Assembly: GCA_944372525.1 (NCBI GenBank)
Contig: CALVZL010000005.1
Location: 4,200-68,199 of the forward strand
Origin: an uncultured Clostridia bacterium
Lineage (GTDB): Bacteria > Bacillota > Clostridia > Christensenellales > Borkfalkiaceae
Length of the DNA: 64,000 nt
Direction: 5' to 3'
Made by a program: the position numbers and the translations under genes. Each line of letters begins with the position of its first letter. Position 1 is the stretch's first letter. Positions 3,818 to 35,096 of this stretch are shown here, one piece after another. Below the pieces are notes generated by a model, which was not told the DNA's origin, did no database searches, and saw only the letters and a list, made by a program, of their open reading frames with translations.

Positions 3818-4957
3818 TCAGCTCGCGCGATATATGAGTTTTCCGTCCCGCACGGTATAAAGAACATCGTAATTTTTCCCCAGCACCGTAAAATCCGCCG
3901 CCTTTCCTTTGGCAATGCTCCCCGTCTCCGCATCGATCTTCAACGCGCGGGCGGGATTGATCGTCGCGCTCTCCAACGCGCGTTCCACGGGCATTCCGAT
4001 CTTTTCCGCTGCGTTCTGCACCGCACGGTTCATCTTGAGAACGCTTCCGGCAAGCGTGCCGTCTGCCAAACGAGCCTGACCGTCTCGTACAAAGACGCGT
4101 TGTCCGCCCAATTCGCTCTCCCCGTCTTTCAAGCCTTTCGCCCGCATTGCATCGGTGATGAGAATGAGCCCTTCCCTTCCCTTGCATTTGCAGAGCAACC
4201 GCATTGCGGGAATCCCGACGTGAATGCCGTCCGCGATGAGTTCACAGACGAGCGAATCGTACAAAAGAGCGGCACCCGCCGTGCCGATTTCCCGATGACG
4301 AAACGGACTCTGCGCATTAAATGTATGCGTGACGTGCGTCGCGCCCGCCGCAATCGCACGGACGATATCTTCGTTGCCCGCCGCCGTATGCCCGAGGGAA
4401 ACGATCACTCCGCGCTCACGAAGATGCGCGATCAGATCTTCCGCCCCCTCTCGTTCCGGCGCAAGGGTCACGATCCGAATGCTGTTCCCGCTTGCCGCAT
4501 CGAATTCGTCGAAAAGCTCTGCCGAAGGTTCGGCAAGATAGGCCGCAGATTGCGCGCCTTTGTATGCCTCCGCAATAAACGGACCCTCGAGGTGGACGCC
4601 GCACAACCTCGCGCCCTCCCGCGGAGCACGGCAGCGATACTCCCGCACCGCGCGCAGCGCGGCGAGGATCGCCTCTTTGCTCTGCGTCATCGTCGTGGCG
4701 AGAAAGCTCGTCGTTCCCTCCGCCGCAAGCGTCTTCGCGATCGTACCGAGCGCCTCCGCGCTTCCGTCCATCGCGTCCGCTCCTCCCGCGCCGTGAATGT
4801 GCTCGTCGATAAATCCGGGACAGATCAACGCCTCTTCGGGAAGCGGGAGGATCTCCCCCTCCGCCTCTCCGACGGACAGGATTTTCTCTTCGAAAGTCAG
4901 ATCGCAGCGCCGGATCTTCCCTTCAAGAAAGACGCGCGCCCCCGAAAAAGATCTCAT
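3818..4957 (-). CDS. nagA: N-acetylglucosamine-6-phosphate deacetylase
   Basis: 379 aa. Metal-binding motif GFIDEHIHGAGGADAMDGS, plus LGHTAAG and HVTHTFNAQ, as in NagA amidohydrolases. Confidence 0.9.
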   Translation of the reverse strand: MRSFSGARVFLEGKIRRCDLTFEEKILSVGEAEGEILPLPEEALICPGFIDEHIHGAGGADAMDGSAEALGTIAKTLAAEGTTSFLATTMTQSKEAILAALRAVREYRCRAPREGARLCGVHLEGPFIAEAYKGAQSAAYLAEPSAELFDEFDAASGNSIRIVTLAPEREGAEDLIAHLRERGVIVSLGHTAAGNEDIVRAIAAGATHVTHTFNAQSPFRHREIGTAGAALLYDSLVCELIADGIHVGIPAMRLLCKCKGREGLILITDAMRAKGLKDGESELGGQRVFVRDGQARLADGTLAGSVLKMNRAVQNAAEKIGMPVERALESATINPARALKIDAETGSIAKGKAADFTVLGKNYDVLYTVRDGKLIYRAS

Positions 4958-4970
4958 TTCTCTCCCTCCT

Positions 4971-5696
4971 TCACGAAAGCAGAGAAGCTGCGTCCTCGTC
5001 GACGATCAGCGTGCAATCCGGATGCATCCGCAAAACGCTCGCGGGAAGCCGTTCGGTGATTTCTCCCTCCACCAAACCGCGTACCGCCTTTGCCTTGTTG
5101 GCACCGTTCGCCAAAACGAGAATTTTTTCCGCGTTCATGATGTTTTTCAATCCCATCGTAAACGCCCGCCGCGGGACATCTTCCTCCCGTTCAAACAGGC
5201 GGGAATTGTCTCTGATCGTGCTCTCCGCCAGTTCGACGACATGCGTCTCGCTGGAAAAGGGCGTACCCGGCTCGTTGAATGCGATATGTCCGTTGGAGCC
5301 GATCCCGAGCAGCTGAATGTCCTGCCGCAAATCGGAAAGCAGGGCGTTATACCGCGCGCACTCCGCCTCCGTGTCACCGGCAAGCCCGTTCTCGATGTGA
5401 GTGTTTTCCGGCGGAATGCCGATTCCGTCGAACAGATTCTTTTTCATGAAATAGGCGTAGCTCTGATCGTTTTCCGGACCCAGACCGGCATATTCGTCGA
5501 GATTGACCGTTCTGATCTTTTGATAGCTCGTCCCTTCCCGTTCGTGATCTTTCACCATCTTTTGGTAAAGACCAAGCGGCGTGGATCCCGTGGCAAGTCC
5601 GAGGACCGCCTGCGGATTGTTTTGTACCACAGCCTTCATGATCTCGAACGCCCTTTCGCTCAGTTCTTCATAATCTTTTGCGACAATTACTTTCAT
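4971..5696 (-). CDS. nagB: glucosamine-6-phosphate deaminase
   Basis: Motifs LGLATGSTPLGLY and LGIGSNGHIAFNEPG. The start is moved to MKVIVAKDYEE (ATG 5696-5694), which has a GGAAAGG RBS. The ORF-track start at 5738 adds 14 unlikely residues. Confidence 0.9.
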   Translation of the reverse strand: MKVIVAKDYEELSERAFEIMKAVVQNNPQAVLGLATGSTPLGLYQKMVKDHEREGTSYQKIRTVNLDEYAGLGPENDQSYAYFMKKNLFDGIGIPPENTHIENGLAGDTEAECARYNALLSDLRQDIQLLGIGSNGHIAFNEPGTPFSSETHVVELAESTIRDNSRLFEREEDVPRRAFTMGLKNIMNAEKILVLANGANKAKAVRGLVEGEITERLPASVLRMHPDCTLIVDEDAASLLS

Positions 5697-5734: not shown

Positions 5735-7009
5735 TCATTCCTTTTTTCCGTGTACGGCGATGCGCGCCCCGCCCTTCAAACGGGATTCCTCGGCACAGAT
5801 CGCCATAAGGTGACTTTCGACGGAAGCCTCCAGCGAGGTTTCCGCCGAGATCTCTCCGCAGAGCACGCGATAGAGGGTTTCCACCAGCCCGACGTCTCCC
5901 CCGCCATGTCCGTATCCGCCGATCCCCAAGGAAGAAATCGAGATGCGCTCCGCCTGCGCCCCGAAGGGCTTGACAAGGATTTCATCTTTTTCCTCGTTCA
6001 GAACGATCTCCCCGTCTGTCCCGAAGAACGTCATGATGCGTCCTCCGTTTGCGGTAAACGCCGTCATGACAAGCGTCGCCTTCACGCCGTTTTCAAAGAC
6101 CATCTGCGTGAGCTGATGATCGACGACGTCGTTGTCACAGAAAAAGACGCATCGCCCGTACGGTCCGTTTGCAAGCGCTTCTTCGAGCGCCGCCCGCGTA
6201 AGCGGGCAAACATTCGTGACCTGCGTATAGGGCCAAGCCCGCTCGGGCTTTCCTTCCTCTTCCCAGCGGTCGAGGTAAATACGTTCTGCGCTGTAAGGGC
6301 AAGTCCGCCGAAAGGCGCACTCCGTGCAGCGGCGCGCACAGCCTTCGGGCGCATTGTCGGCAAGGAAATACGTAAGATCTCCGACCGAAGTCAGACTCTC
6401 GCACCGAGAACGCGCATAAAATTGCAGCAGATCGAGATCGTGACAACACTTCGCCAAAATCATGGGCGCCGTCTCCTCCTCTCTCCGCCAATTTCCGCGC
6501 ACATAGCTGTGCGCCTGATGCCAGTAGGCGACCTGCTCCAGCGCCTGGATCGCGACAAGCCGTCCGATCCTCTTCTGCGCAAGCAGCTCGGAAACCTTGA
6601 CGAAGGCCGGCGCATAGCGAAGGACATGGCAGACGAATACCTGCCTGCCCGACGCCTTTTGCGCCGCCAAAAGCTTCTCACAGGACTTTCGGTCCGAAGC
6701 GATGGGCTTTTCCAGCAGAACGTCGTAACCGAGCGCAAGCCCCGCAAGACACTGATGCACATGATCGCGATCCATCGTGGCGATCACGAGCAGGTCCGCC
6801 CGCTTTTCCCGCAAAAAGCTCTCCTCGTCGCCGAAACGGTTTTCGGTGGGAACGCCGAACCGCTCCCCGTATTTTTTCAGTCGGACGGGATCGCTGTCGC
6901 ACAGCGCGGCAACAGAAAACTTACCGTCCGATTGCGCAAACAGCGCCCCGTATGTCTCAGCTCCTCGGTTTCCGCATCCGATGATTGCGGCAGAAAACAC
7001 TTTTCCCAT
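5735..7009 (-). CDS. Gfo/Idh/MocA-family NAD(P)-dependent oxidoreductase with a Cys-rich insert
   Basis: Rossmann N-terminus MGKVFSAAIIGCGNRGAETYG and an EKP motif (LLEKPIA). The ATG at 7009 has a GAAGGAG RBS and overlaps the nanE stop by 1 nt (TAATG). The track start at 7027 is a TTG. Confidence 0.8.
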   Translation of the reverse strand: MGKVFSAAIIGCGNRGAETYGALFAQSDGKFSVAALCDSDPVRLKKYGERFGVPTENRFGDEESFLREKRADLLVIATMDRDHVHQCLAGLALGYDVLLEKPIASDRKSCEKLLAAQKASGRQVFVCHVLRYAPAFVKVSELLAQKRIGRLVAIQALEQVAYWHQAHSYVRGNWRREEETAPMILAKCCHDLDLLQFYARSRCESLTSVGDLTYFLADNAPEGCARRCTECAFRRTCPYSAERIYLDRWEEEGKPERAWPYTQVTNVCPLTRAALEEALANGPYGRCVFFCDNDVVDHQLTQMVFENGVKATLVMTAFTANGGRIMTFFGTDGEIVLNEEKDEILVKPFGAQAERISISSLGIGGYGHGGGDVGLVETLYRVLCGEISAETSLEASVESHLMAICAEESRLKGGARIAVHGKKE

Positions 7010-7797
7010 TATGCCCGCTCCTTCCAAGCCTGCGCTTGTCTCCCTTCCGCTCCGTAGAGGCTATTGATCGTCCCGTTTTCAAACGAAGCGCCGGATACAA
7101 GGTCAAACACCTTTACGTAATCGCGTGTAATATTCTGCGGACGGGTGATCGCGCCGCCGATGATGACGTGAGAAATCCCGAGCCCGAGAATCGCCTGCAA
7201 TTCGGAAAACGTGTGGATCCCGCCTTCTGCAATGATGACCGCGTTGCGGATATCGCGCTGGAGCTTTCTGCAAAACTCGATGTCCGGGATCACGATCCCC
7301 TTGGTCTGTTCCGTGTAACTGCGCATCGTGGTGGAGATGTAATCGAACCCGAGTTGCTCCGCTTCCAGCGCCTCCTCGTACGTCGCAATGTCCGCCATCA
7401 ATGCCTTATCCGTATGATCGCGCAAATAACGGACAAGCTCCTTCGTCGTGACTCCTCCCGGACGGGGGCGCATCGTCGCGTCCATGGCGATGACCGAGCA
7501 TTTGGAATGGATAAGCTTTTTTGCCTCCCGAAGTGTCGGCGTAATATAGACGGGAGAGTCGGGATAGCACCGCTTGATCAGTCCGATGATGGGGAGTTTT
7601 TGGGTCAAAACCCGATGGATCGCATTGATATCCCTCACCGTGTTTGCCCGGATCCCGACCGCACCGCCGCGTTCGGCGGCGATCGCCATTTTTGCGATGG
7701 TATTCCCGCCGTACAGCGGCTCTCCTTTCAGCGCCTGACATGATACGACCAATCCGCTCGGAATGATATCTTTCATATTATTTCCCTGCCTTTCCAT
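7009..7797 (-). CDS. nanE: N-acetylmannosamine-6-phosphate 2-epimerase
   Basis: 262 aa. LVVSCQALKGEPLYG and GAVGIRAN are typical of NanE TIM-barrel epimerases. An alternative start is MKDIIPS at 7776. Confidence 0.85.
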   Translation of the reverse strand: MERQGNNMKDIIPSGLVVSCQALKGEPLYGGNTIAKMAIAAERGGAVGIRANTVRDINAIHRVLTQKLPIIGLIKRCYPDSPVYITPTLREAKKLIHSKCSVIAMDATMRPRPGGVTTKELVRYLRDHTDKALMADIATYEEALEAEQLGFDYISTTMRSYTEQTKGIVIPDIEFCRKLQRDIRNAVIIAEGGIHTFSELQAILGLGISHVIIGGAITRPQNITRDYVKVFDLVSGASFENGTINSLYGAEGRQAQAWKERA

Positions 7798-7881: not shown

Positions 7882-9873
7882 TTATTTCCGGTTCGCAAAT
7901 CCCTGACGGAAGGCTTCTACCGTCGCCGCAAGATCTTCATAGCCGCCGTTCGGATCGATAAAGCGCAGACGGTTGGACACCTTTCCGCCGATCGAATCGT
8001 TGCAGTTAAACCACACGGCACCGACGATCTGGCTGACCCAGGCGGGTTTTTCCTCTGCGTTGAACAGGGTGAACATATCTGCAACCCATTTCGCCTGCAC
8101 TGCGCCGTTACGTCCCAACACCCCGGAATAATCGCCGCCCGAACCGCACGCAAATTCCGAAATAATGAGCTTCCACTGCGAGAACGCCTCTTCGTTCTTC
8201 TCATACAGCGAACTGTAATGCGATTCGAACGAGACGACGGAAGTCGCCGCCGCAGCAGCATCGTAGTTGTTCATTTCATAACTCGTTCCGCCAAGCAGCT
8301 GCACATAATCCTTTCCGGGGAAGAAACACAGATCCTCTCCCCAGGAGGAATAAGGGCAGGATGTCGCGATCGGATTCCAAATCCAGATTGCGTTGTCCAC
8401 TCCCTCTTCTTCGAAAATGTTGTAAAGCCTCTGCCAAGTCATGATGAAGATATCGGGATCGAGCAGCGTCATCATGCCGCTGTAGCTCGTCCAGTCGGTA
8501 TTCATCTCATTGTTGAGACGGAACAAAACGGGTTTTTCGTAGTTCTTGATATCCCTCGCGAGGCGACGGAACTGTTCGTCGTACTTGCCTCGCAGGACCT
8601 CAAACATGGGCGTCGTCTCGGCGGAGACGATATTGTTGTTCAGCGTAAACTGATAGGTGAACTGCAGTACGGGTTTCCCGTTGAATCCGTCGCCGCCCGC
8701 GAGTTCTTCCGCCATTTTGGAGGGGAAATGATGCGCCGAATAGTTCTGATAATTTGTCCCGCTGCCGATGTGCGTATAGGTGGGATAGATGTCGAACTCA
8801 TATCCCCACGCATCCTCGATCGACGTCTGCATGAGACGGCTCTGTTCCAAAATGTACTGATAGTAGCTGTTCGTTTCCTCCAGTTGCTCTTCCAGTCCTG
8901 GCATCGACCAACTGAACACGCCCCAATTCACTGTCTTGGATGAAGTAAGCAATTCATAATACTTCTTGGTCGACTCGTTCCAGTTTTCGTTGATCGTCGG
9001 CTCGCCCGCATCGAAATAGTTGCGCTGCAGTCCCTTGGCACTCAGGCGGGCAAAACTCTGTACGATCGCGTCCATTTCCTCGGAACGGTCGGATTTGGAC
9101 TTCATGACGAACAGCGCAAACGTCTTGACGTCGTTCGCTTCGCGGATGACGGCAATGTTGTAATAGGGACGCTCGATCACGTTGTCCTCATCCTCGATCC
9201 GAATGGCGAAGGTGTATACGTCATACCCCGGTTTTACCGTGAGATTGCCGTGCGAGCTGGTCACGGTGAAATCGAAATCCAGTTCTTTGAGAAGCGTCAG
9301 ATTGTTGTTCGCATAATAGTCCTCATTGATGAGATGACACATGAGCCATTCGCTCCCATAGGTGTACCAGGGATCGGCGAGCGAGGTATAGGGATTGCTC
9401 GACTCGGAACTCACCGTAAGAATCACGTCGTCGTACGCATACTGCGTGCGGTACTTGGCAATGGTATAATCCACGTCGATCTCGGTCGCGGGAAGCGTAA
9501 ACGCCATGCCTGCGGAGACATTGACCATGCGAGCCCCCGTCTCATTATAGAGCTCTAATTTAATATCCTGTCGGGTGGTATAGTTCGTAAACTCTTTCTG
9601 GTAGCTTCCGTTGACAAAATATCTCCCTCCCGTGATATCGTCTGCGGAAGAGAAGCCGTTCGCTCCGTCTGAAAGCTCGTTCTTCGTGTAGACGCCACCG
9701 TAAGCATATTCGATGGACGGACGGTCGGTGAGGACCTCGTCGGTCACCCCAGAAGGCTGATCGGGATCGTCCGGCGTATCATCCTGAGGATCTTTGCAGC
9801 CTCCGAGATAACAGGAGCTCAACATCATCACACCCAACATGATTGCAACCATTTTTTTCATTCTTTCCTCCAA
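7882..9873 (-). CDS. secreted lipoprotein with a C-terminal GH26-like glycoside hydrolase domain
   Basis: Lipobox MLSSCYLGGC. The C-terminal half has LFRLNNEMNTDW, AIWIWNP, FFPGKDYVQLLGGTSY and ISEFACG, which resemble GH26 signature blocks. The N-terminal ~400 aa are unassigned. Confidence 0.55.
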   Translation of the reverse strand: MEERMKKMVAIMLGVMMLSSCYLGGCKDPQDDTPDDPDQPSGVTDEVLTDRPSIEYAYGGVYTKNELSDGANGFSSADDITGGRYFVNGSYQKEFTNYTTRQDIKLELYNETGARMVNVSAGMAFTLPATEIDVDYTIAKYRTQYAYDDVILTVSSESSNPYTSLADPWYTYGSEWLMCHLINEDYYANNNLTLLKELDFDFTVTSSHGNLTVKPGYDVYTFAIRIEDEDNVIERPYYNIAVIREANDVKTFALFVMKSKSDRSEEMDAIVQSFARLSAKGLQRNYFDAGEPTINENWNESTKKYYELLTSSKTVNWGVFSWSMPGLEEQLEETNSYYQYILEQSRLMQTSIEDAWGYEFDIYPTYTHIGSGTNYQNYSAHHFPSKMAEELAGGDGFNGKPVLQFTYQFTLNNNIVSAETTPMFEVLRGKYDEQFRRLARDIKNYEKPVLFRLNNEMNTDWTSYSGMMTLLDPDIFIMTWQRLYNIFEEEGVDNAIWIWNPIATSCPYSSWGEDLCFFPGKDYVQLLGGTSYEMNNYDAAAAATSVVSFESHYSSLYEKNEEAFSQWKLIISEFACGSGGDYSGVLGRNGAVQAKWVADMFTLFNAEEKPAWVSQIVGAVWFNCNDSIGGKVSNRLRFIDPNGGYEDLAATVEAFRQGFANRK

Positions 9874-9910: not shown

Positions 9911-11683
9911 TCACTGCAAAGAAACCGTAAACAGCGTGCTGTACAGTCCGTAGGTCCCGTTCCCCGTATCCTGCTCCGCATAGAGCAGCAGCTGCACCGT
10001 TCCGTCTCCCCTTCCCACTTCAATTATTTTGCATTCACGCTGCACCTGCCAGCCACAGTAGGTCGTACAAGAGACGTTGACCGATCCCGCAGCGATCGTC
10101 GCTTCCTCGATCGAAGCGGGCGCAGAGATCTCTTTGACAAACATTGCGCACTCCTCTGCGGCGTCTGTCGTGGCAATATTTGCCTTGGAGAAGAAGTGCG
10201 ACGGGTCGGAAAAAGTCCAGGTATTCTGCACATAGCCCCGCGCAAGATACGCCTGTGCCATTGTATTCGTCGAGTTTTCGTACGTCTCGTCCAATACGAT
10301 GTTATATTTTCGCAAAAAGGCGATCTTGGAGGCAATGTTCGTCATTCCCGTCCAGCCTCCTCCCCAGCCGGACTGTCCGTTTTCGCTCTCCTTTCCGGAC
10401 GTCGCCCCGCCGAGGAACCCCACGGGGATTTCCGGCATATATTCGCGCATGCCCTCCGCATAAGGGGCATAGAAGGTAATCGCAAACCAATGGCCTTCAA
10501 ATTCCGGATGCCGCTCCATTACTTCCTTGATGCGTTGGATGGCGCCAAGCTCGTCGACCGCCTTTGACGAACCGCCGTCGAGTTTGAGTTCGAGAATCAG
10601 AATGACATCTGTTTTGGACAGCACTTCGATCACTTCGTCGAGCGTAGGATACGTCTCCTCGTATTTCCTGCTGTAGTCTTCCAAAAAGAGCGTTCTCAGC
10701 CGCTCCAGAGGAACGGAAGCAAAATACCAACCCGAAATATTTGCAGTCCCGTTGGTTTGTGAATTGTGGCAGAGTACGATCTCGCCGTCTGCCGTGACTT
10801 GCACGTCGATCTCCACGTGCGTCGCTCCCTCGTTTGCGGAAGCAGCGACTGCCGTGAGCGAATTTTCGTTGGCATATGCCGTGATGCCGCGATGCGCCGC
10901 CACGTGCTGTGCCCGCGCAAAGCCGTTCTCCGTAAATACCGAAAGCGACTCACGAAGCACAGAGGCATCGGCAGAGACAATCCCGTAGCAACCTGCCGCG
11001 ACCGCCGCGATCCCCTCCGTTCTGTTTTCGGCATACGCCCAACAGGACTTCGCCATGGCAGAGACATAATCCGACGCAACCGCAATGTTGGGATCTGCCG
11101 CATCGAACATCAGGACATTGCAACCCGCCGCGTTTGCCTCCCCGATATATTCCCAGAGGTCATAGCGATCGGAGGGAATCGTCTGTTCCGTCAGATCGTA
11201 TATCGTATTCACGAGATAACAGACTTCATCGGAATAGAGAGTCTCGAGCACACCGATCTCCGAGGAAAGGACCATGATATCTGTGATCGTATAGGTCTCT
11301 TTCATCCATTGCACGAAGGGCTGTACCGTCGCGGCGCTCAAGCGCAGCACAGGGATAAACTTCCCCTTCAAAAAAGAATCGAATGCCGACGCAAGCGTCA
11401 TGGTGCTTTCCCCGAGCGTCACGTTCATGTCCTCGTCCGGAGTAAGCACGAGAGAGGCCGGACGCGGGCTCTGCAGATAATTCTGCGTAATCTCCGAAAA
11501 CGCCGTCGCTTCATAGACCAAAGTCGGCTCAAGCTGCAGTCCGCTGCTCCCCGCAGACACAGACGGATAATTGGTATAACTGCTGATCGCACTTGCCTGA
11601 TAAACGGTGCTGCCGCCGAATGCAAACACTGCGGTCAGCGCCGCGGCAAGGAGCACAAACATCTTTTTCGACATCTCCGTCAC
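9911..11683 (-). CDS. secreted glycerophosphodiester phosphodiesterase (GDPD) domain protein
   Basis: Signal peptide MFVLLAAALTAVFAFGG. GDPD motifs AAHRGITAYANENSL and HVEIDVQVTADGEIVLCHN lie in the central region. The N-terminal ~250 aa and the C-terminal beta-rich tail are unassigned. Confidence 0.8.
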   Translation of the reverse strand: MTEMSKKMFVLLAAALTAVFAFGGSTVYQASAISSYTNYPSVSAGSSGLQLEPTLVYEATAFSEITQNYLQSPRPASLVLTPDEDMNVTLGESTMTLASAFDSFLKGKFIPVLRLSAATVQPFVQWMKETYTITDIMVLSSEIGVLETLYSDEVCYLVNTIYDLTEQTIPSDRYDLWEYIGEANAAGCNVLMFDAADPNIAVASDYVSAMAKSCWAYAENRTEGIAAVAAGCYGIVSADASVLRESLSVFTENGFARAQHVAAHRGITAYANENSLTAVAASANEGATHVEIDVQVTADGEIVLCHNSQTNGTANISGWYFASVPLERLRTLFLEDYSRKYEETYPTLDEVIEVLSKTDVILILELKLDGGSSKAVDELGAIQRIKEVMERHPEFEGHWFAITFYAPYAEGMREYMPEIPVGFLGGATSGKESENGQSGWGGGWTGMTNIASKIAFLRKYNIVLDETYENSTNTMAQAYLARGYVQNTWTFSDPSHFFSKANIATTDAAEECAMFVKEISAPASIEEATIAAGSVNVSCTTYCGWQVQRECKIIEVGRGDGTVQLLLYAEQDTGNGTYGLYSTLFTVSLQ

Positions 11684-11689: not shown

Positions 11690-12274
11690 TCAAATCCCGA
11701 CGATCAGCGTAAAGGAGCACTGCTCGCCGCCGTATGTCACCGTGATCGTGCATTCTCCGCGCGAGACCGCCGTAACAACTGCGATCATCCCCTGGTATTC
11801 CACGGTGCCGATCGAGACATCGGAACTCTCCCACACCGCTTCCCCGGAGAGCGTGCCCTCCGCATATGCCCGAACTCTTGCGCTCTCATTGCGCCGAAGC
11901 ACGAGTTTTCCGGTCGGCAATCCCACGGTAAGCAGAGGTTCCGGAGCAGGAGTCACCGTTAGGGCATATTCTTGACGGTAGGTCTTTCCGTTCTGGGTGA
12001 ACTCGGCATAGACGACCGTCTCTCCCGCCGCGACCGCGATGACCGTCGCACTCTCCTGAGCGGGTTCGACCGTGACGATTCCATCCGGTTCCGCACCCCA
12101 TATCAGCTCTCCCGTTCTGCCCTCCGTGACCGCAACGATCTCAACGCTCTCGCCGACGACCAGTTCGTGCTGAAGGCCGGATAATTCGATCGAGACCGTT
12201 TCTCCGCAGGCGGAAAGCCCGAGCATCATCGCCGCCGCACAGCCGAACAGAACCGCTTTTCTCAAAACTTTCAT
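11690..12274 (-). CDS. lipoprotein with two bacterial Ig-like (Big_2-type) domains
   Basis: Lipobox LGLSAC. Two roughly 85-aa segments each have a Big_2-like pattern (LVVGESVEIVAV..., VTVEP...ATVIAVAAGETVVYAEF, and a second copy ending GECTITVTYGG). Confidence 0.65.
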   Translation of the reverse strand: MKVLRKAVLFGCAAAMMLGLSACGETVSIELSGLQHELVVGESVEIVAVTEGRTGELIWGAEPDGIVTVEPAQESATVIAVAAGETVVYAEFTQNGKTYRQEYALTVTPAPEPLLTVGLPTGKLVLRRNESARVRAYAEGTLSGEAVWESSDVSIGTVEYQGMIAVVTAVSRGECTITVTYGGEQCSFTLIVGI

Positions 12275-16676: not shown

Positions 16677-16686
16677 ATTCCCCTCC

Positions 16687-25391: not shown

Positions 25392-25420
25392 ATTATAGCT
25401 CAATCTTAAAAAGTTGTCAA
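25392..25420 (-). promoter_or_regulatory. consensus sigma-70 promoter for the RpiR-family gene
   Basis: Minus strand: TTGACA (25420-25415), 17-nt spacer, TATAAT (25397-25392). It overlaps the stop region of the upstream ORF. Confidence 0.5.
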
Positions 25421-28263: not shown

Positions 28264-28276
28264 CTCTTCCTCTCCT

Positions 28277-30151
28277 TCATTCGTTTACGTTGACGGAACT
28301 CATCCTCCGCCACCGCCATTCGCACTGATCGAGATCCTTCTCGAATTCTGTTCCGTGTCCCATAAAACAAAGCAGTTTCTCGCCCAGCTCCGGGATCTCT
28401 CCTGTCTCGCCCGTCAGATATGCCTCCGTCTTGCGGATCGCGGAATGCAGCCGCCGCTCGAGCGCGCCGATGCGAAGATCCTGCACGTCGAATCCGTGCG
28501 GCATGTTTTCCCTCTCCCATTGCGCGAGCAGGGCGCGGTAGAAGGCGTCGACCCGAACGCAAAGTTCTTTCAGTCTGCCGCATTCCGCACGCAGCGCCTC
28601 CCGGTCTCCCTGTTGATACGCCGCGCGCAGACGGATGCCGATCTCCGATTTGATCTCGAGCACCTCCGCAAGGCGGCGCTGCGTCTCAAAGAGGTAACTC
28701 CATTTGCCCGCTTGCCGCTCCGCAGCGAGCAGCGCGCGCGCATGCGCGGCATACCGCTCCCCGAGCCCCTCTTCCACCGTGGTGTCGAGAGTTCCGAGCA
28801 ATACGTCGTTAAACAGCAAATACTTGTTTGCGCTGTTTTTCTCTTCCACGTCGTCGTGATCGGTGAGGCGATTGCACAGATCGACGGTCATAAACGCGTC
28901 GAACGGCATTCCCGCAAAAAGTTCGAATCCTGCTTCGAAGCGTTCGCCCTTCAGCGGCTCTCCCGCGTTGATGCAGGAACAGGCATACAGAGAGGGAAGC
29001 GTTGCAAAGACAGAACAGTCCGCGCCGTTGTCTCCCCAGCCCGTGACAATGAAATGCTCCACGCCTTCTTTGACGCAGGCACGCGCCGCCGCCTCGCAGG
29101 AAGCGAATGCATATCGGTTATCCGGCGTGTAGCCCAGCCATTTCCATGCTCCGCCCGCAAAACCGATCTCGTTGGGAAACGCGCGGTGTTTGCGGATCAT
29201 CGCATCGTAATGCGCCTCATCCGTACTGCAATAGTCCCAATAGATGAGCTCTACGCCTTCGGGCACCTTCTGTATCACTTCCGGGGGAAGCCCCTCCGCA
29301 TATTGCCCGTTCATGGTAAGCGAAAAGAACATGTCCGACCACATCATCGGAGAAAATCCGTATTTTTTGCAGATGCCGATGATTTTTTCGAGATGTTCTG
29401 CCATGATGTCGAAGCGATCGCGGGCGCCGTGCAGATCCATGTATTTTCCGCGCCCGAGCATATATGCTTCGTCCATGCCGATATTCATCCGCCGAGACGA
29501 GAAACAGGAGGCGCACGTCGCGATCAGCGCCTCGATGAAATCGTACGTCTTTTGTTCTCCCACGAGCAGAATATCGTTGACATCGAACAGGTCTGCCATT
29601 GCATAATGCCGAATGAGCGTATTGAAATGCGCAAGCGTCTGGATAAAGGGAATGAGTTCGATCCCGAACAGTTTGCAATACGCATCCGTGCGGCGCAGCT
29701 GCTCCGCCGTGAAAGGCGTGCGAAGATATCCGAAATAGGGATATCCTTCCACACGGAAGGTGTCCTCCATATACAATCCGAAGCTGTCATATCCCAGCAC
29801 CGCGAGATGGCGGATGAGAGAAAAAAGCGTCTCTTCGCGCGGGACGGCATTGCGCGAACAATCAAGCATATAACAAAGTTCATGAAACGTACCGTTCAAA
29901 GAAATCTTGATCGGCTGCGCGGGAACGCTTTCCCGACAGAGTTCGGCAAAGCGCCTGAGCGCATAAAAAATCTGAACCCGTTTGCGGACACAAACGAGCA
30001 ACCTCCCCTTGTCATAGACAAGCGCGGCTTCCTCCGCGTCCTCTTCGACGTCAACGGGGATTCCCTCACGGCTGAGCGCAAAGCCGAATTGTCCCGAAAG
30101 CTCCGCCGCCGCCCGCGCGATCTCCTCCGAACGGATATTATAATTCATCAT
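28277..30151 (-). CDS. GH20-family beta-N-acetylhexosaminidase-like protein, cytoplasmic
   Basis: YMLDCSRNAV at the start of the barrel and the catalytic-pair region RRMNIGMDEAYMLG (D-E). No signal peptide. The start overlaps the ROK stop (ATGA). Confidence 0.7.
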   Translation of the reverse strand: MMNYNIRSEEIARAAAELSGQFGFALSREGIPVDVEEDAEEAALVYDKGRLLVCVRKRVQIFYALRRFAELCRESVPAQPIKISLNGTFHELCYMLDCSRNAVPREETLFSLIRHLAVLGYDSFGLYMEDTFRVEGYPYFGYLRTPFTAEQLRRTDAYCKLFGIELIPFIQTLAHFNTLIRHYAMADLFDVNDILLVGEQKTYDFIEALIATCASCFSSRRMNIGMDEAYMLGRGKYMDLHGARDRFDIMAEHLEKIIGICKKYGFSPMMWSDMFFSLTMNGQYAEGLPPEVIQKVPEGVELIYWDYCSTDEAHYDAMIRKHRAFPNEIGFAGGAWKWLGYTPDNRYAFASCEAAARACVKEGVEHFIVTGWGDNGADCSVFATLPSLYACSCINAGEPLKGERFEAGFELFAGMPFDAFMTVDLCNRLTDHDDVEEKNSANKYLLFNDVLLGTLDTTVEEGLGERYAAHARALLAAERQAGKWSYLFETQRRLAEVLEIKSEIGIRLRAAYQQGDREALRAECGRLKELCVRVDAFYRALLAQWERENMPHGFDVQDLRIGALERRLHSAIRKTEAYLTGETGEIPELGEKLLCFMGHGTEFEKDLDQCEWRWRRMSSVNVNE

Positions 30152-31026
30152 TTGAATGTTACCCCGCTTTTTCCGAATTCAGTCCCAAGATCCAGTCCGA
30201 GCGCGCCGAAAATCCCGGCACGCGGTCCGAGACGGGCAAACGCCACATCCTCTTTCTTTTCGATCATAGAGAAAAACATATTTTCCGATTGCGCAACTCC
30301 GCCGCCCAGCAGAATTTTCTGCGGCGAAAGCGCCGTACGAATATCGTCGAGCAGGAGATTGAGGCGGCGGGCAAACGCGGCGAAGATCTCCTTTGTCCAC
30401 TCCTCCCCCGCGGCATGGCGTTCGAACAGCTCCCTGCAACTCTGCAGTGCATGAAATTTCCTCCTGCCGCTGCGCAGAAGCGCGGTCGCCGAAAGATAGC
30501 TCTCGGCACAGCCCCGTTTTCCGCAGCTGCACCGTCTGCCCCCGGGAACCAGGCAGAGATGTCCCCAGCGCGCTCCGTCGAAGGCTTTGCCCCGTACGAT
30601 TTTTCCGCCCGCCATGCTCGCGCCGCCGACGCCCGTCCCGAACGTGAGCATGGTCACGTCGGTCAGTTCGGGATAAAACTTCAGTTCTCCCAAAAGAGCG
30701 CATACGGCGTCGTTTTCCGCGCGGCAGGGCGTGCGATAACGCGTCCCGACGCTGCCTGCAAGGTCCGCGCCCGTCCATCCGCGCAGATTGTCCGTCGCAT
30801 AGACGCAGACACCGCGCGCGGGATCGATGTTTCCTGCAGAGGAAATGCCGATGAATCGGACGGATTCCGTCATCAGGACGTCGATCAGGGCAAAGAGCTG
30901 CGAAAAGATCGCCTCCCTGCCCTCCTGTCCGCGAGTCGGAAGAGAGAACTCCCGCTCAATTTGATCCCCGTCCGCGCGCACGCCCTTAATCGTCGTCCCG
31001 CCGATATCCACGCCGATCTTTTTCAT
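30148..31026 (-). CDS. ROK-family sugar kinase (GlcNAc or ManNAc kinase candidate)
   Basis: ATP-binding MKKIGVDIGGTTIKG and the ROK zinc motif CSCGKRGCAESY. Confidence 0.85.
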   Translation of the reverse strand: MKKIGVDIGGTTIKGVRADGDQIEREFSLPTRGQEGREAIFSQLFALIDVLMTESVRFIGISSAGNIDPARGVCVYATDNLRGWTGADLAGSVGTRYRTPCRAENDAVCALLGELKFYPELTDVTMLTFGTGVGGASMAGGKIVRGKAFDGARWGHLCLVPGGRRCSCGKRGCAESYLSATALLRSGRRKFHALQSCRELFERHAAGEEWTKEIFAAFARRLNLLLDDIRTALSPQKILLGGGVAQSENMFFSMIEKKEDVAFARLGPRAGIFGALGLDLGTEFGKSGVTFK

Positions 31027-32543
31027 GGCGTCCTCTCCTTCTCCGTCAGACGGATCTCTGCCTCAAACATCCGCCGCCAGGGCATCTCCACCGAGACATC
31101 CTCCACGCGTGCCGCCAGTTCGGGAAAGCGCTCCCGCATACGGGCGATCAGCCGTTCGCGGACGGCAGAGGCAACCGCTCCCGCCTTTCCGTCCGTATGA
31201 AAATAGTCCAAACCGAGCACGGGAAGCACCTGTTCCGTTACTTCCTTCCGCACGATCCCCATATAGCCCATATCCTCGTAATAGCGATGCAGCAAAAAGC
31301 GCACCCGCCCCCGCTCGTCGCCGCCGCACAGCCAGAGCACACTCTGACACATTGCCGTGCCGAGCGTATTGGAGGAAGTGTTCCAGCCTGCGTAGGCATG
31401 AACGGCAAGCAGCAAGCCCTCCTCCCGCATCAGGTGAAGCAGCTCTCCGTCGCTTCCGTTGCAGGTGGCAACGTCTCCGACCGCCACCGTCTTGCCCTCC
31501 TCCAGCGCATAGCGAAGAAAGGCAACAAACTCCGCAAGATTGCGTTCGACGTCGAGATGCAGGACGGCTTCCGGAGAATCGGGGTCGCACATGCCCGACC
31601 CCATATTGATCCCGAGCACGATGTCTGCTTCGGGAAGCGAATACACCCTCCGTCCGCCCGCCGCGAGAATATGATATTTGACCGTTTCGTCGAGCGGACG
31701 GTCTTCAAACCAGGGAATGACTGCTCCCGCCTTCGAAGAGGCGTAGTGCACATAGACGCGCGGCCGGACGCCGTGCGCTTCGGCAACCGCCCTGCCCAGA
31801 AGAATGAGACCCGTATCGTCGGCAGAGGGATACATCGCCGTCTTTCCGTGAAGCGCATGTTCTTTGAGAAACTGCCGCACCGTGATCTGATTCATCGAAG
31901 TAAATCCGTAGACCGCCGCGTCATCCTGCGGTACGATAAAATAATCCGCCGTCCCGTCGCGGAGGAATTCGAGATCGTGCAGAAGAACGCATAGGTTTTT
32001 CTCCCGCCGACCCGTAAAATCGGCAAGGACGTCGGCGGGGATCTCCCGCTTCAGACGGACAAACGCCTCCTCTTCCTCTTGCGTGAGCTTTCCCAACTTT
32101 TCAAGATGCGTATATCGTCCGAACAGATGCAGCTCTTTGCCGAACTCGTCGTAATAGTCCGGTTCTTCGTCGCTGAGAGAGTAATCCGGACAGCGCATGA
32201 TGAGCTGAAAGAGATAGAGCTTCATCTTCGGATTGACGCGGCGCAATTCGCGCACAAGGTCTGCGCGCGCCGCAAGCGTTTCGAACGATTCCCCGTGCAG
32301 ACGGGAAGGGACGATCCCTCCGTAAACGAGCGTGTCCAGCGAAAGAATGCAGGCGTCCGCGTCGGCGCACTCCCGCAGCAGCCATTCGCCGAGCCATGCC
32401 GTGTCCGCGGGGACCTTTTTGTCCCCCATCCGCTCGCGGGGAGGCAGTCTAAGCAAGTAATCCGCCTCCGGCATCAGCTGCGGATAAATATAGTTGCACG
32501 GCCGCTCGTCGAGCGGAAGCATCACGATCTTTGTCATAGACAT
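31023..32543 (-). CDS. DUF4127-family protein (uncharacterised), paralogue 2
   Basis: MSMTKIVMLPLDERPCNY from the ATG at 32543 (GGGAGAA RBS), and YAGWNTSSNTLGT near the C-terminus. The 59 residues upstream in the track ORF are Arg/Gly-rich and overlap the SGNH gene, so I excluded them. Confidence 0.7.
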   Translation of the reverse strand: MSMTKIVMLPLDERPCNYIYPQLMPEADYLLRLPPRERMGDKKVPADTAWLGEWLLRECADADACILSLDTLVYGGIVPSRLHGESFETLAARADLVRELRRVNPKMKLYLFQLIMRCPDYSLSDEEPDYYDEFGKELHLFGRYTHLEKLGKLTQEEEEAFVRLKREIPADVLADFTGRREKNLCVLLHDLEFLRDGTADYFIVPQDDAAVYGFTSMNQITVRQFLKEHALHGKTAMYPSADDTGLILLGRAVAEAHGVRPRVYVHYASSKAGAVIPWFEDRPLDETVKYHILAAGGRRVYSLPEADIVLGINMGSGMCDPDSPEAVLHLDVERNLAEFVAFLRYALEEGKTVAVGDVATCNGSDGELLHLMREEGLLLAVHAYAGWNTSSNTLGTAMCQSVLWLCGGDERGRVRFLLHRYYEDMGYMGIVRKEVTEQVLPVLGLDYFHTDGKAGAVASAVRERLIARMRERFPELAARVEDVSVEMPWRRMFEAEIRLTEKERTP

Positions 32544-33655
32544 TTCTCCCGCGCCGCAAGATTTTTTCGGATGCGCGCGAGCGTGCGCGCGTAGTCGGCG
32601 GCGATCGCCATCATGCCCGCATCGTTCGGATGTACGCCGTCTGCCGTGTAGATCGTAAAATTTCCCGGGAAAATGTGCGTCCCGTCCGCAAAAAACGCCG
32701 CCTTGTTCCGCCTTCTCCACGCCGCCGCAAGTTGTTTCAGAAACACATTGTAGCGCTCATGCAGACGCGCGCGTTCCTCGTCGTACAGATCGAGCGCAAA
32801 CAGCACGCGCGAATAAAGCACCACGGCGGTATCCGGACTCTTTTCCCAAAACGTCTTCAGAAATTCCTCTGCCCGTTCCATCAGGCACAGATCGGTGCCC
32901 GCATTCGGCTCGGTATCCACGATCAAGACATCGAGCGAACGGGACCCTAAAATTTCTGCCATTTCCCGCTCCATGAACGCAGATCCGGAGAATCCGAAGT
33001 TAAGCACTTCCGCGTCCAGCGCTGCGCTGAGCAAATTGGAATATGCCATTCCGGGATGGGAAGCGCTGCATCCCTGCGTGATACTCGTGCCGTATATTCC
33101 GTATCGGGTTCCGTCTGAAAACGCAATGGGCCGCACGACGGCGTTTGCATCCAGTCCGATCTCAAAGGAATCGACGATCATATAAAGGGGAAGACAGATG
33201 CGACAGCGCCGCATCTGCCGCTCTTTTCCCTCGAAATGCCCGAGCGGAACCTCATAGCGGTCGGCATCAAACCCGAAGCGCGCCACCTCATGAAGACACT
33301 CCGCACCCATCCGCTCGTCCCAGACGAACAGATCCGCTCCGCACTGCCCGATCTGGGTCATGTTCGTCATGTCAAATTTCGAACGCAGCGCAACCCGTAC
33401 GAAAATGCGCGAGGAGTCCGTCTCGAATCGCAGTCCGATTCCCGCGGAATGCTCGCCCAGCCATGCCTCTCCGTCGTTCACGGGACGCAAAAGGGCGCGT
33501 TCGCGCTCGGTCAGGCGGCAAAACCCTTTTTCGCCGAGTGCATCCGACCCGTAAATCCCGAAGGCGGGATCTTTCGCGCTCCGAAAAACGAGCTCGCCTG
33601 ATTCCGCCTTTTCCGTCTTCATATTGCGGTCGATCTCAGAAATATGCCGTTCCAT
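32534..33655 (-). CDS. SGNH/GDSL-family esterase with an N-terminal beta-sandwich domain (carbohydrate deacylase candidate)
   Basis: Block I IYGTSITQGCSAS (nucleophile Ser) and block V DGVHPND. The N-terminal part has a GADLF (GxDLY-like) element. Confidence 0.75.
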   Translation of the reverse strand: MERHISEIDRNMKTEKAESGELVFRSAKDPAFGIYGSDALGEKGFCRLTERERALLRPVNDGEAWLGEHSAGIGLRFETDSSRIFVRVALRSKFDMTNMTQIGQCGADLFVWDERMGAECLHEVARFGFDADRYEVPLGHFEGKERQMRRCRICLPLYMIVDSFEIGLDANAVVRPIAFSDGTRYGIYGTSITQGCSASHPGMAYSNLLSAALDAEVLNFGFSGSAFMEREMAEILGSRSLDVLIVDTEPNAGTDLCLMERAEEFLKTFWEKSPDTAVVLYSRVLFALDLYDEERARLHERYNVFLKQLAAAWRRRNKAAFFADGTHIFPGNFTIYTADGVHPNDAGMMAIAADYARTLARIRKNLAAREKCL

Positions 33656-33671
33656 TTTTGCCGCTCCGAAT

Positions 33672-35096
33672 TCAATCCTCTCTCGTCGTGATCAGCAGTC
33701 CGTTCATGACCGAACGGGTGTTCAGCAACTCGGTGCTTGCCGTATCGCTCGAACGGACGACGACGCGCGCCTCCGTCTCCTCTGCACCGCGTACGACGAG
33801 CTGCGTCGAGCCTCCTCCGTCAAAATTCGCCGCCTGCTCGCAGCCGTAGAAATAGGCAAACTGCGCCAGTTCGGGAAGATTCATTCCGTGAAGATCCCCT
33901 TCCGAATCCTTCTTCCCGTAATACATCGATTCCACGGCAAAGAGCACCACCGTTCCGTCCGCTTTGATCCCGATCGCCGTGCGCGGAACGTCCCTGCTCT
34001 GCGCGCCGTTGGTGTTCTCCAGCGTCACGGTGTCCGCAACCGCTCCGTCGACGACGAGCGCCTGACGGCAACCGAGAATGGTCTCGTATCCGTCCCACAG
34101 TCCGTCCGGAGACGTTACGGGAAGGGAGACCGTATCCCCCGCGGAGACCTTTCCGATGAGCCCGTACGCTCCCGCATATGCCAATCCCGTCACAATGTAC
34201 GCATAATCTCCCTGGACAGCGGTCAGTTCGGTCGCCTTGGAGATCTGAACCTTTTCCAGCACCTTCATCTCCGAATAACCCTGCGAGACGTCCACTTTGA
34301 TCGCGACGCCCATGCTCACCGACAGGGAACCCGTCGTGAGGAAGCACGCGCGATCGGCGCTCGGAGCCGTATTTTCCGCAACGGAAACTTCCCCGCCGCC
34401 GACGGACAGCGCGCCATAGCTGAGCTTCGCCGTGATGACCCCGCGTTTGACTTCCGCAGAGGTAATATCTCCCTCGTAAGAGACGATGGGCGCGATTTGC
34501 GCGGAAGTCCCCTTGATGCCGAACAGCATAGGCGCGGATGCGGGAACGTCTGAATTCAGGTCGAGATAGTCGTATACGCCCGCGTCGTTATGACCTGCCT
34601 TCACGATCACGCCGTCTTTGACAAAGGCGTTGACGCAGGTGCTCCCGAAGAAATCCGCATTGATGGATGCATAGACATGTCCTCCCGTCGCACTTTCCCA
34701 CGCCTGCGCCTGTGCGTAGGGCACCGATTTCTCCCAGGCAAATCCCGCCGCAACGTTATTCTTCGTGCCGGCTCGGATATCCGCTTCGGACAGATCGACT
34801 TCGATCGCATAGACGGCGGAAACCGTATCGTTGCTCTTGGTCACGGTATTTTTGACCATCGTCACTCCGTCGCCCAGTTCCGTCACCTCATAGGACACGC
34901 TGCCCCCGTCAAAAAGCGTCGGCGCATAGTCCGTGCGGTAAGTCGGCGCAAACGGAACATCGGGCTCTTCGGTGTTCCCGCCCGGCTCTTCGGTGTTCCC
35001 GCCGTTACAGGCGCTCAGCGCAACGGCAAACAGCATGAGAATCCCCAGCAGCACACAGATCCATCTGACAGAAAAACGTTTCGATTGCCCCGTCAT
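33672..35096 (-). CDS. membrane-anchored phosphodiester glycosidase (NAGPA/DUF2233-type) domain protein
   Basis: N-terminal anchor/lipobox-like VRWICVLLGILMLFAVALSAC. The C-terminal PRTAIGIKADGTVVLFAVE and ANFDGGGSTQLVV are typical of the NAGPA (uncovering-enzyme-like) domain. Confidence 0.7.
   Translation of the reverse strand: MTGQSKRFSVRWICVLLGILMLFAVALSACNGGNTEEPGGNTEEPDVPFAPTYRTDYAPTLFDGGSVSYEVTELGDGVTMVKNTVTKSNDTVSAVYAIEVDLSEADIRAGTKNNVAAGFAWEKSVPYAQAQAWESATGGHVYASINADFFGSTCVNAFVKDGVIVKAGHNDAGVYDYLDLNSDVPASAPMLFGIKGTSAQIAPIVSYEGDITSAEVKRGVITAKLSYGALSVGGGEVSVAENTAPSADRACFLTTGSLSVSMGVAIKVDVSQGYSEMKVLEKVQISKATELTAVQGDYAYIVTGLAYAGAYGLIGKVSAGDTVSLPVTSPDGLWDGYETILGCRQALVVDGAVADTVTLENTNGAQSRDVPRTAIGIKADGTVVLFAVESMYYGKKDSEGDLHGMNLPELAQFAYFYGCEQAANFDGGGSTQLVVRGAEETEARVVVRSSDTASTELLNTRSVMNGLLITTRED

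Follow-up and report, generated by a model that had tools for sequence, protein, structure and literature searches.

The window analysed here is a stretch of 64,000 nucleotides from a contig of an uncultured Clostridia bacterium (CALVZL010000005.1). It contains a locus of 21 genes at positions 3818-35096, each on the minus strand. It is best explained as a glycan utilisation locus of the Gram-positive type, with two structural operons and an rpiR gene between them, in a metagenome-assembled genome (MAG) from a Christensenellales-like gut Clostridia bacterium. The genes were taken from the list of open reading frames (ORFs) and annotated with Pfam and NCBIfam. In the order of transcription, the products are a NAGPA-domain lipoprotein, an SGNH esterase, the DUF4127 paralogue b, a ROK kinase, GH20C, GH31b, a protein with NAT_N and GNAT_C domains (GNAT-like below) and an RpiR regulator. 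These are followed by lipoproteins of 1507 and 601 aa, two ABC permeases, the DUF4127 paralogue a, GH31a and a Big_2 protein, and finally by GDPD, a GH26-like protein, NanE, a GFO/IDH/MocA oxidoreductase, NagB and NagA. The gene content and the domains are those named in the first-pass annotation of this DNA, where the GNAT-like protein had been called hypothetical. No sialidase, NanA, mannosidase, fucosidase, galactosidase or endo-N-acetylglucosaminidase was found among the Pfam and NCBIfam domains of the locus, in agreement with the earlier statement that it does not resemble a classical plant or mucin polysaccharide utilisation locus.

Start codons were checked against public gene calls on identical DNA (NCBI GCA_949300505.1, contig CASGEK010000031.1), and with the true starts the gene overlaps reported earlier are correct. 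The SGNH esterase and DUF4127b genes overlap by 10 nt (32534-32543), the DUF4127b and ROK genes at 31023-31026, and the ROK and GH20C genes at 30148-30151. Further overlaps are observed between GH31b and the GNAT-like gene (26260-26263) and between DUF4127a and GH31a (14241-14263), and the nanE and GFO genes share 1 nt at 7009. Co-directionality was rejected as evidence for operons, as almost the whole window is minus strand: with few exceptions the long ORFs between 1763 and about 62 kb have this orientation, and the GC skew is negative throughout. It is the conserved gene order, shared with more than 40 other genomes, that goes beyond chance.

The earlier division into surface and cytoplasmic proteins holds at the level of N-termini. 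Lipoboxes are present in the NAGPA (LSAC), GH26-like (LSSC) and Big_2 (LSAC) proteins and in the lipoproteins of 601 aa (LAGC) and 1507 aa (FTAC). The N-terminus of GDPD is a type-I signal peptide (..YQASA|IS). Signal sequences are absent from the remaining enzymes of the locus.

Related loci were collected by searching the GTDB representative genomes with an alignment of DUF4127. This gave 79 loci, onto which 23 proteins of the window were mapped. Module A consists of RpiR, the 1507-aa lipoprotein, the solute-binding protein, two permeases, DUF4127a, GH31a, Big_2, GDPD, GH26-like (one or two gene copies), NanE, GFO and (NagB, NagA). Module B consists of NAGPA, SGNH, DUF4127b, ROK, GH20C, GH31b, GNAT-like and RpiR. 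Each module has the same order in about 20 gut Clostridia MAGs (rabbit, chicken, Christensenella-like), and the two are often adjacent on one contig. Shuffled but complete versions were found in MAGs of Bacilli, Erysipelotrichaceae and Mollicutes. A metagenome scan anchored on GDPD with an orthologue alignment found 14 loci, whose neighbours, where flanking genes were present, are Big_2, GH26-like, NanE, the importer, NAGPA and DUF4127; a scan with the single GDPD protein, in contrast, found nothing. The co-occurrence of GDPD, NAGPA and DUF4127 was recovered in both the DUF4127 and the GDPD-anchored collections, and this GDPD subfamily appears to be confined to the neighbourhood described here. 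One complete module B (locus L020) is deposited under the name of a Betaproteobacterium, Parasutterella excrementihominis. Given the identity of 50-63% between its genes and their Clostridia counterparts, the contig is probably a binning error rather than a horizontal transfer.

The most frequent neighbours of DUF4127 among the 79 loci are NanE (47), RpiR (40) and ROK (35). The partners that recur in distant taxa are NanE, ABC permeases, RpiR and ROK; the carriers there are about 25 Paenibacillus species, Lachnoclostridium phytofermentans, Hominenteromicrobium and Acholeplasma granularum. In 24 of the 37 distant loci (Paenibacillus, Acholeplasma) an FAD-dependent oxidoreductase of about 530 aa (PF12831) lies between DUF4127 and NanE; examples among loci L047-L079 are L065 11546-13252, L054 7951-9546 and L051 12964-14520. 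This flavoprotein is absent from the window. Other distant partners of DUF4127 are esterases and GHL10-like or DUF5696 proteins, and some variant loci contain a gene of the N-acylglucosamine 2-epimerase family (PF07221). The DUF4127-NanE link is the deepest one, and by this comparison N-acetylmannosamine (ManNAc) is the predicted conserved centre of the locus. The first-pass annotation had treated ManNAc as a side branch, which is not what comparative genomics shows, DUF4127-NanE-ROK being the organising theme.

The two DUF4127 proteins of the window, paralogue a (511 aa, 14241..15776, minus strand, PF13552 E 4e-147) and paralogue b (506 aa, 31023..32543, minus strand, E 1e-142), are 53% identical to each other and match the profile over the full length with 491 and 476 bits. 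A profile search among 1.84 billion representative proteins yielded 2505 DUF4127 clusters at 50% identity. The best 150 proteins include 10 fusions (P0134, P0158, P0165, P0169, P0186, P0174, P0143, P0148, P0166, P0264), and the partners are ROK (five proteins), NanE, GHL10, a GDSL esterase, an alpha/beta hydrolase and an aminoglycoside-type N-acetyltransferase. Since these are the same functions as those of the DUF4127 neighbours in the window, DUF4127 would be placed right before the steps of the kinase and the epimerase. The idea that it is itself the missing ManNAc kinase was rejected because of the repeated fusion to a ROK kinase. The AlphaFold2 model of DUF4127a is confident (pLDDT 89, pTM 0.89) and has strands alternating with helices. 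In 72 sequences the invariant residues following predicted strands include D9, D204-D205, D239, E277-D278 and D355, together with nine arginines. No mention of DUF4127, PF13552 or an N-acetylmannosaminidase was found in the literature searched.

The secreted phosphodiesterase GDPD (587 aa, 9911..11674, minus strand) has its PF03009 domain at residues 264-494 (69.5 bits, Pfam gathering cut-off 23.6). The candidate catalytic set H264, R265, E273, E291, D293, H306, E365 and K367 is invariant in 12 orthologues; we take the Glu/Asp/Glu to be metal ligands. The spacing between H264 and H306 is 42 residues, the same as between His-43 and His-85 of GlpQ; B. subtilis GlpQ uses His-43/Arg-44/His-85 (PMC7086022). 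At the same time, the best E-value against PDB is 3e-11, the values for 5T91 and 2OOG are 3e-6 and 2e-6 over about 100 residues, and the scores are far below the NCBIfam cut-offs for GlpQ and UgpQ. Judged by sequence, GDPD is only distantly related to GlpQ-type enzymes and does not qualify as a GlpQ-type teichoicase. The GlpQ-like trimming of poly(glycerol-phosphate), poly(GroP), proposed earlier was not borne out, given this remoteness from GlpQ (5T91, E 3e-6) and the NCBIfam scores.

The NAGPA lipoprotein (474 aa, 33672..35096, minus strand) has a C-terminal phosphodiester-glycosidase domain (PF09992, E 1e-23, 84.8 bits with a cut-off of 25). Its NFDGGGST at residues 424-431 (DGGGS from 426) and PRTAIG align to 3OHG and to vertebrate NAGPA structures. 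The DGGGS loop of NAGPA, with the catalytic Asp in it, is invariant and essential (2026 structure paper, PMC13474241). The hydrolysis of an N-acetylglucosamine (GlcNAc)-alpha-1-phosphodiester by the window protein is putative. The earlier proposal depended on catalytic residues being present in both GDPD and NAGPA, and they are intact in both.

The GH26-like lipoprotein (7882..9861, minus strand) consists of an N-terminal beta-sandwich and a clan GH-A barrel (Pfam GH26, E 3e-9, 37 bits with a cut-off of 20). The top Foldseek match of its AlphaFold2 model (pLDDT 84) is CtLic26A (target TM-score 0.72, E 3e-13), and the identity to characterised members is about 17%. N451-E452 (acid/base) and E569 (nucleophile) are invariant in 25 orthologues. 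In related loci the gene invariably lies between GDPD and NanE, which suggests a non-plant substrate, possibly a manno-configured N-acetylhexosamine; this setting is unlike that of loci for plant glycans.

Two companion lipoproteins are encoded nearby. The Big_2 lipoprotein (11690..12274, minus strand; Pfam) is invariably encoded directly upstream of GDPD across related loci. The 1507-aa lipoprotein (19744..24267, minus strand) matches no Pfam or NCBIfam domain and is kept in 21 loci at 31-39% identity. It contains three helical repeats of about 310 aa, which were seen by eye and were not reported by a BLAST self-comparison. It may be a surface binding protein.

Three transcription units are predicted: from NAGPA to the GNAT-like gene, rpiR, and from the 1507-aa lipoprotein gene to nagA. 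They were delimited by consensus promoter and terminator scans, which gave three outstanding minus-strand promoters and one strong terminator. The outer boundaries of the locus thus stand as originally proposed, whereas the locus is resolved into two structural operons with the regulator gene between them. Module B is preceded by promoter P1 (35135..35163, TTGACA-17-TAAAAT, 11 of 12 consensus matches) and, ahead of it, the AAAATTTTTTTCA element at 35153-35182. Promoter P2 of the regulator gene (25392..25420) and promoter P3 of module A (24329..24356) match the consensus at 12 of 12 positions. The 1507-aa lipoprotein gene has its true start (24267) 60 nt downstream of P3, and the AAAAATTTTTTTCA element is included within 24329..24375. 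Module A is closed by an intrinsic terminator directly after nagA (3783..3804, minus strand; a 9-bp stem followed by T7).

P1 and P3 have in common a 30-nt block AAATTTTTTTCAnAAAnTCTTGACA, at 35153-35182 and 24346-24375 of the minus strand, which is missing from the rpiR promoter. A second motif, ATGAAAATTnCTTT, is also common to both structural operons (24458-24471 and 35112-35125, minus strand). The 64-kb window contains no further copy of the block or of the motif; for the element, 0 matches were expected by chance. In other genomes the arrangement A5T7CA-N5-7-TTGACA occurs upstream of 18 of the 25 orthologues of the 1507-aa lipoprotein gene and 10 of the 28 NAGPA orthologues. This conservation upstream of orthologous operons indicates that the shared block is a selected cis element with co-regulation of the candidate operons, possibly an operator or an UP element. 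The candidate regulator is the RpiR/MurR-family protein (HTH_6 and SIS domains in Pfam and NCBIfam; 24505..25338, minus strand), present in 40 of the 79 loci. According to one study, the RpiR-family regulator NanR senses and binds ManNAc-6-phosphate (PMC13635753). No riboswitch or other regulatory RNA was found in the locus by Rfam and tRNA scans.

The importer consists of a lipoprotein binding protein and two permeases with BPD_transp_1 domains (15780..17751, minus strand; Pfam), which is the composition of a CUT1-type importer. No ATPase gene for it is present in the locus. The 601-aa lipoprotein (17785..19590, minus strand), encoded directly upstream of the permeases, is a divergent LplA-type solute-binding protein. 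It has no Pfam match itself; SBP_bac_8 was found in 3 of 89 homologues, and homologues are annotated as extracellular solute-binding protein or as substrate-binding protein of an aldouronate transport system. The profile-profile probability for Paenibacillus solute-binding proteins is 12%, a weak match.

The cytoplasmic enzymes of module B, all encoded on the minus strand, begin with a putative O-deacylase, the SGNH esterase (32534..33655; Pfam GxDLY and Lipase_GDSL_3), which has no signal peptide and adjoins DUF4127b in 25 of the 79 loci. The ROK-family sugar kinase (30148..31026; Pfam ROK) is followed by the beta-N-acetylhexosaminidase GH20C (28277..30151; Pfam Glyco_H_20C_C), which scores 420 bits with GH20C of Streptococcus pneumoniae and 394 bits with 2EPK. 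The alpha-glucosidase GH31b (26260..28263) scores 802 bits with the family-31 alpha-glucosidase of PDB entries 3N04 and 3NSX. The GNAT-like protein (25406..26263; Pfam), a putative amino-sugar N-acyltransferase, is homologous to the acyltransferases Tcp24 and Dbv8 (E 1e-21), which presumably N-acylate a glucosamine; the homology suggests that a sugar with a free amine may be re-acylated.

In module A, the candidate alpha-glucosidase or transglucosidase GH31a (12281..14263, minus strand) groups with the cycloalternan-forming enzyme Lmo2446 (376 bits; 291-294 bits with other GH31 proteins) and related GH31 enzymes active on alpha-1,3 and alpha-1,6 bonds. The remaining genes, also on the minus strand, encode the ManNAc-6-phosphate 2-epimerase NanE (7009..7797; Pfam 180 bits, NCBIfam 264 bits with a cut-off of 189), the NAD-dependent GFO/IDH/MocA oxidoreductase (5735..7009; Pfam), the glucosamine-6-phosphate deaminase NagB (4971..5696; TIGR00502, 267 bits with a cut-off of 237) and the GlcNAc-6-phosphate deacetylase NagA (3818..4957; TIGR00221, 342 bits with a cut-off of 226). 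The PDB relatives of the GFO protein are distant and include NanOx (E 3e-6). Its identification as NanOx (6Z3B/6Z3C) was rejected, as this value is no better than for many other GFO members. In Paenibacillus tyrfis (locus L048, 7298-9255), AP_endonuc_2 (a xylose-isomerase-like TIM-barrel) and GFO/IDH/MocA genes precede NanE-DUF4127. We take such pairing to be typical of oxidative (3-keto) glycoside cleavage, and by analogy it hints at a role of the window GFO protein in non-hydrolytic glycoside cleavage.

The ManNAc is predicted not to come from sialic acid. A NanA-like lyase was detected in only one of 93 related loci, not that of the window, by tblastn with an E. coli NanA query sequence entered by hand; the locus has no DHDPS/NanA or GH33 domain, and the window no sialidase. 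This points to bacterial envelope polymers. Natural sources of ManNAc other than sialic acid are linkage units of teichoic acids, secondary cell-wall polymers, capsules and S-layer glycans. A teichoic-acid chain contains a single ManNAc, in its linkage unit, which seems too little for a core centred on this sugar. The fit is no worse for a ManNAc-rich polymer, whether a secondary cell-wall polymer, a capsule, an S-layer glycan or a glycosyl-phosphate teichoic acid, and with ManNAc as the conserved centre such polymers are favoured over classical polyol-phosphate chains. The free-amine sugar, the phosphodiester and the resemblance of the GFO protein to inositol dehydrogenases were reasons to consider anchors of glycosylphosphatidylinositol (GPI) and plant glycosyl inositol phosphorylceramides (GIPC) as substrates. 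Both were dropped: they contain no ManNAc, and the mannosidases or uronate genes they would require are absent.

Several characterised systems share parts with the locus. Similar to the nan clusters of Firmicutes, it has the funnel of ROK kinase, NanE, NagA and NagB, an RpiR-type regulator, a similar importer, an esterase, and an oxidoreductase gene abutting nanE; some nan clusters include a GFO-family NanOx. It differs from them in that NanA and sialidase are missing, DUF4127 stands in the position where ManNAc would be generated, and extracellular phosphodiester-cleaving and GH26-like enzymes are added. The pneumococcal GH20C/ROK locus likewise has a cytoplasmic GH20C (420 bits) beside a ROK protein and acts on imported oligosaccharides. 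It carries mannosidases and a fucosidase for N-glycans, in place of which the window has DUF4127, GH31, SGNH and NAGPA.

The surface enzymes have known counterparts as well. GlpQ of B. subtilis and S. aureus (with PhoD) has the same secreted GDPD fold, catalytic His/Arg/His and metal ligands as the window protein (PMC7086022). However, GlpQ acts as a single enzyme of the Pho regulon, has about 290 aa, frees glycerol-3-phosphate for phosphate supply and is encoded outside import or glycan-catabolism loci, whereas the window GDPD has 587 aa, is remotely similar, and its adjacency to Pho genes is not conserved. Human NAGPA and the bacterial DUF2233 protein 3OHG contain the same catalytic domain, DGGGS loop and PRTAIG as the window NAGPA, which in contrast is a lipoprotein whose N-terminal region (about 300 aa) is unrelated, and which aligns to them only in the C-terminal ~100-125 residues (315-440; E 3e-10 at best). 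The GH26 beta-glycanases (CtLic26A, mannanases) share the barrel of clan GH-A, its NE acid/base and its Glu nucleophile; the window protein is about 17% identical to them, is a lipoprotein with an extra N-terminal beta-sandwich, and is encoded between GDPD and NanE. The GlcNAc-6-phosphocholine phosphodiesterase was dropped as a relevant precedent, as it belongs to the EEP superfamily and not to GDPD (PMC10704324). No characterised homologous locus, for this or an unrelated substrate, was found in the literature searched, which is in line with the earlier expectation. The same search gave nothing relevant for a teichoic-acid or ManNAc-polymer utilisation locus or for NanE together with teichoic acid.

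Taken together, these observations lead us to favour, with moderate confidence, the reading that the locus serves to break down a phosphodiester-bridged, ManNAc-containing envelope glycopolymer of other bacteria, to import it and to catabolise its amino sugars. The substrates and reactions in the following scheme are predicted from gene content, motifs, localisation signals, promoters, the terminator, synteny and gene fusions. At the surface, the GH26-like beta-glycanase, the secreted GDPD and the NAGPA lipoprotein would cut the polymer into oligosaccharides, possibly helped by the Big_2 and 1507-aa repeat lipoproteins. ManNAc, GlcNAc and alpha-glucose would be constituents of this polymer, which may be a teichoic acid (glycosyl-phosphate or substituted), a secondary cell-wall polymer, a capsule or an S-layer glycan. 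The LplA-type binding protein and the two permeases would take up the oligosaccharides. In the cytoplasm, the SGNH esterase would strip O-acyl groups, the GNAT-like enzyme would re-acetylate free amino sugars, the two GH31 alpha-glucosidases and GH20C would take off glucose and GlcNAc, and the two DUF4127 enzymes would free ManNAc from a ManNAc-glycoside that is probably anionic. ManNAc and GlcNAc would then be turned into fructose-6-phosphate by the ROK kinase, NanE, NagA and NagB. The shared promoter element would be the site of action of the RpiR regulator, whose signal is probably an amino-sugar phosphate, for example ManNAc-6-phosphate.

A number of observations weigh against this scheme. 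The assignment of DUF4127 as a cytoplasmic hydrolase that frees ManNAc from an anionic (phosphorylated, pyruvylated or otherwise acidic) ManNAc oligosaccharide is a guess from context only. Neither sequence nor profile searches found a PDB relative of the family, and Foldseek found no PDB fold neighbour at E below 1e-3, with TM-scores below 0.2; the weak top matches (TIM-barrel glycosidases) were not relied on for a fold assignment. The nine invariant arginines could equally suit a substrate that is a sugar phosphate or a nucleotide. With the glucokinase and NanK models of NCBIfam, the ROK kinase stays below the cut-offs. The bond specificities of GDPD, NAGPA and the GH26-like protein are putative, the characterised enzymes being remote (17% identity, or E 1e-7 to 1e-11). 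Finally, the set of GDPD, NAGPA and GH26-like is limited to gut lineages, the Paenibacillus DUF4127-NanE core having GHL10 and PF12831 instead, and thus the phosphodiester and ManNAc themes could be separable.

The first-pass annotation proposed scavenging of teichoic acid or a phosphoglycan. Of this, a phosphodiester-linked, ManNAc-containing glycopolymer still fits and is strengthened by synteny, whereas poly(GroP) trimming and phosphate scavenging were not upheld. In its strict form, with GDPD trimming the poly(GroP) of wall or lipoteichoic acid and NAGPA cutting the GlcNAc-1-phosphate anchor under phosphate limitation through Pho/Pst, we consider it rather unlikely. In its favour, GDPD retains the His/Arg/His of GlpQ (PMC7086022). 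The alpha-glucose, the GlcNAc and the ManNAc-GlcNAc-1-phosphate linkage unit of such a polymer would occupy GH31, GH20C, DUF4127/NanE and NAGPA, and a Pho/Pst module is real, at 38.7-47 kb, 3.6 kb upstream of the locus. However, this adjacency, cited earlier as supporting context, is seen in no related locus: PhoR, PhoB, PhoU and Na/Pi homologues were absent from 83 related loci within their flanks, and the PstB matches are generic ABC ATPases (25-36% identity); Pho boxes were not searched for. The linkage was rejected as a conserved feature, and therefore a connection to phosphate starvation has no comparative support. Moreover, GDPD is remote from GlpQ (E 3e-6 to 5T91) and has extra domains, the most deeply conserved theme is ManNAc, a single residue per teichoic-acid chain, poly(GroP) and poly(ribitol-phosphate) offer no obvious bond for a GH26-like endo-beta-glycanase, and a glycerol-3-phosphate catabolic gene is not in the locus. 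Turnover of a ManNAc-containing wall polymer of the organism itself, with no scavenging from other cells, is less probable again. The tethered enzymes, importer and catabolic funnel are reminiscent of systems that recycle peptidoglycan, the regulator belongs to the RpiR/MurR type, and anabolic glmS and phosphohexosamine-mutase genes are found in the same window. On the other hand, GDPD is secreted and not tethered, the locus ends in NagA and NagB, that is, in catabolism and not re-use, and Acholeplasma and gut Mollicutes MAGs, which belong to lineages without a cell wall, also carry the DUF4127 core or extended versions of it; this last distribution favours scavenging over self-recycling.

A variant nan cluster in which DUF4127 replaces NanA, splitting an imported acidic sugar (a nonulosonic acid or another non-glycoside) to ManNAc, would account for the parts list of Firmicute nan clusters, namely the ABC importer, esterase, ROK, NanE, RpiR and a GFO gene beside nanE. 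The nine invariant arginines of DUF4127 suit a carboxylate, and the GFO protein is weakly similar to the 2,7-anhydro-N-acetylneuraminic acid oxidoreductase (6Z3B/6Z3C, E 3e-6), although no more so than to many other GFO enzymes. We assign this explanation a low probability: there is no sialidase, DUF4127 fusions and neighbours include the glycoside-hydrolase-like GHL10 and GH20C, and the extracellular trio of GH26-like, GDPD and NAGPA would be left unexplained. Very unlikely, finally, is an ordinary locus for host or diet glycans (N-glycan, mucin, plant or fungal) with a generic amino-sugar funnel and incidental phosphodiesterases. The solved relatives of GH20C and GH31 include those from host-associated species such as S. 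pneumoniae, and a GH51 arabinofuranosidase gene is located just upstream; but the latter and the adjacent leucine-rich repeat (LRR) protein gene are not conserved with the locus, which lacks mannosidase, fucosidase, galactosidase, sialidase and endo-N-acetylglucosaminidase, and an independent search found GDPD only in this neighbourhood. For a NanE without NanA, we know of no ManNAc source in host or plant glycans.

The flanking regions contain several other genes. The LRR gene, encoding a BspA-type lipoprotein, and the gene of a CBM4/9-GH51 arabinofuranosidase (35584-38648, minus strand) separate the locus from the Pho module; the former was found in 3 of the 79 loci and the latter in none. 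In the Pho module, the phosphate ABC permease is a single protein of 660 aa with two BPD_transp_1 domains (44141-46123, minus strand), apparently a PstC-PstA fusion. A tRNA-Pro(CGG) gene at 47230-47306 on the plus strand lies inside a minus-strand ORF of 341 aa (46981-48006). This ORF is thus probably spurious or shorter, and the Pst module would end with the PstS-like gene at 46148-46984. A tRNA-Thr(GGT) gene is located at 50572-50647. Genes for GlmS, a GlmM-like phosphohexosamine mutase and an FGGY-family kinase, possibly a glycerol kinase, are found 16 kb upstream of the locus (51601-56444, minus strand), which puts amino-sugar anabolism and a possible glycerol step near it. Just downstream of the terminator, two polytopic membrane proteins of 339 and 273 aa without Pfam matches are encoded (1763-3604, minus strand), and their Phe/Leu-rich coding accounts for a spike of AT skew (+0.28) at 2-4 kb.

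The plan of surface enzymes, ABC importer, cytoplasmic exo-enzymes and local regulator is already known from glycan loci of Gram-positive bacteria, as is the nan-type funnel. New are the surface set of GDPD, NAGPA and GH26-like, the absence of NanA and the central role of DUF4127, and there is a real chance that the locus hides a new enzyme class. It may be, and this is put forward tentatively, that DUF4127 founds a family of ManNAc-releasing enzymes, that the GH26-like protein is an endo-glycanase on a ManNAc-containing backbone, and that the locus is the first dedicated system with which gut Firmicutes take apart, import and eat the envelope polymers of other bacteria that are linked by phosphodiesters, such as teichoic acids, secondary wall polymers and capsules. 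In the gut, the envelope polymers of Gram-positive bacteria contain much carbon, nitrogen and phosphorus and are strong immune stimuli; to our knowledge, almost nothing is known about the organisms that degrade them there. The cluster offers a conserved list of parts: three secreted or tethered enzymes with intact active sites, an importer, and a regulator with a promoter element. The position of DUF4127, beside the ManNAc kinase and epimerase steps and fused to them, narrows its function to one reaction class. Once a function is assigned to it, thousands of genes could be annotated across Paenibacillus, Lachnospiraceae, Christensenellales and Mollicutes, and new enzymes to analyse or remove bacterial surface glycans could result.

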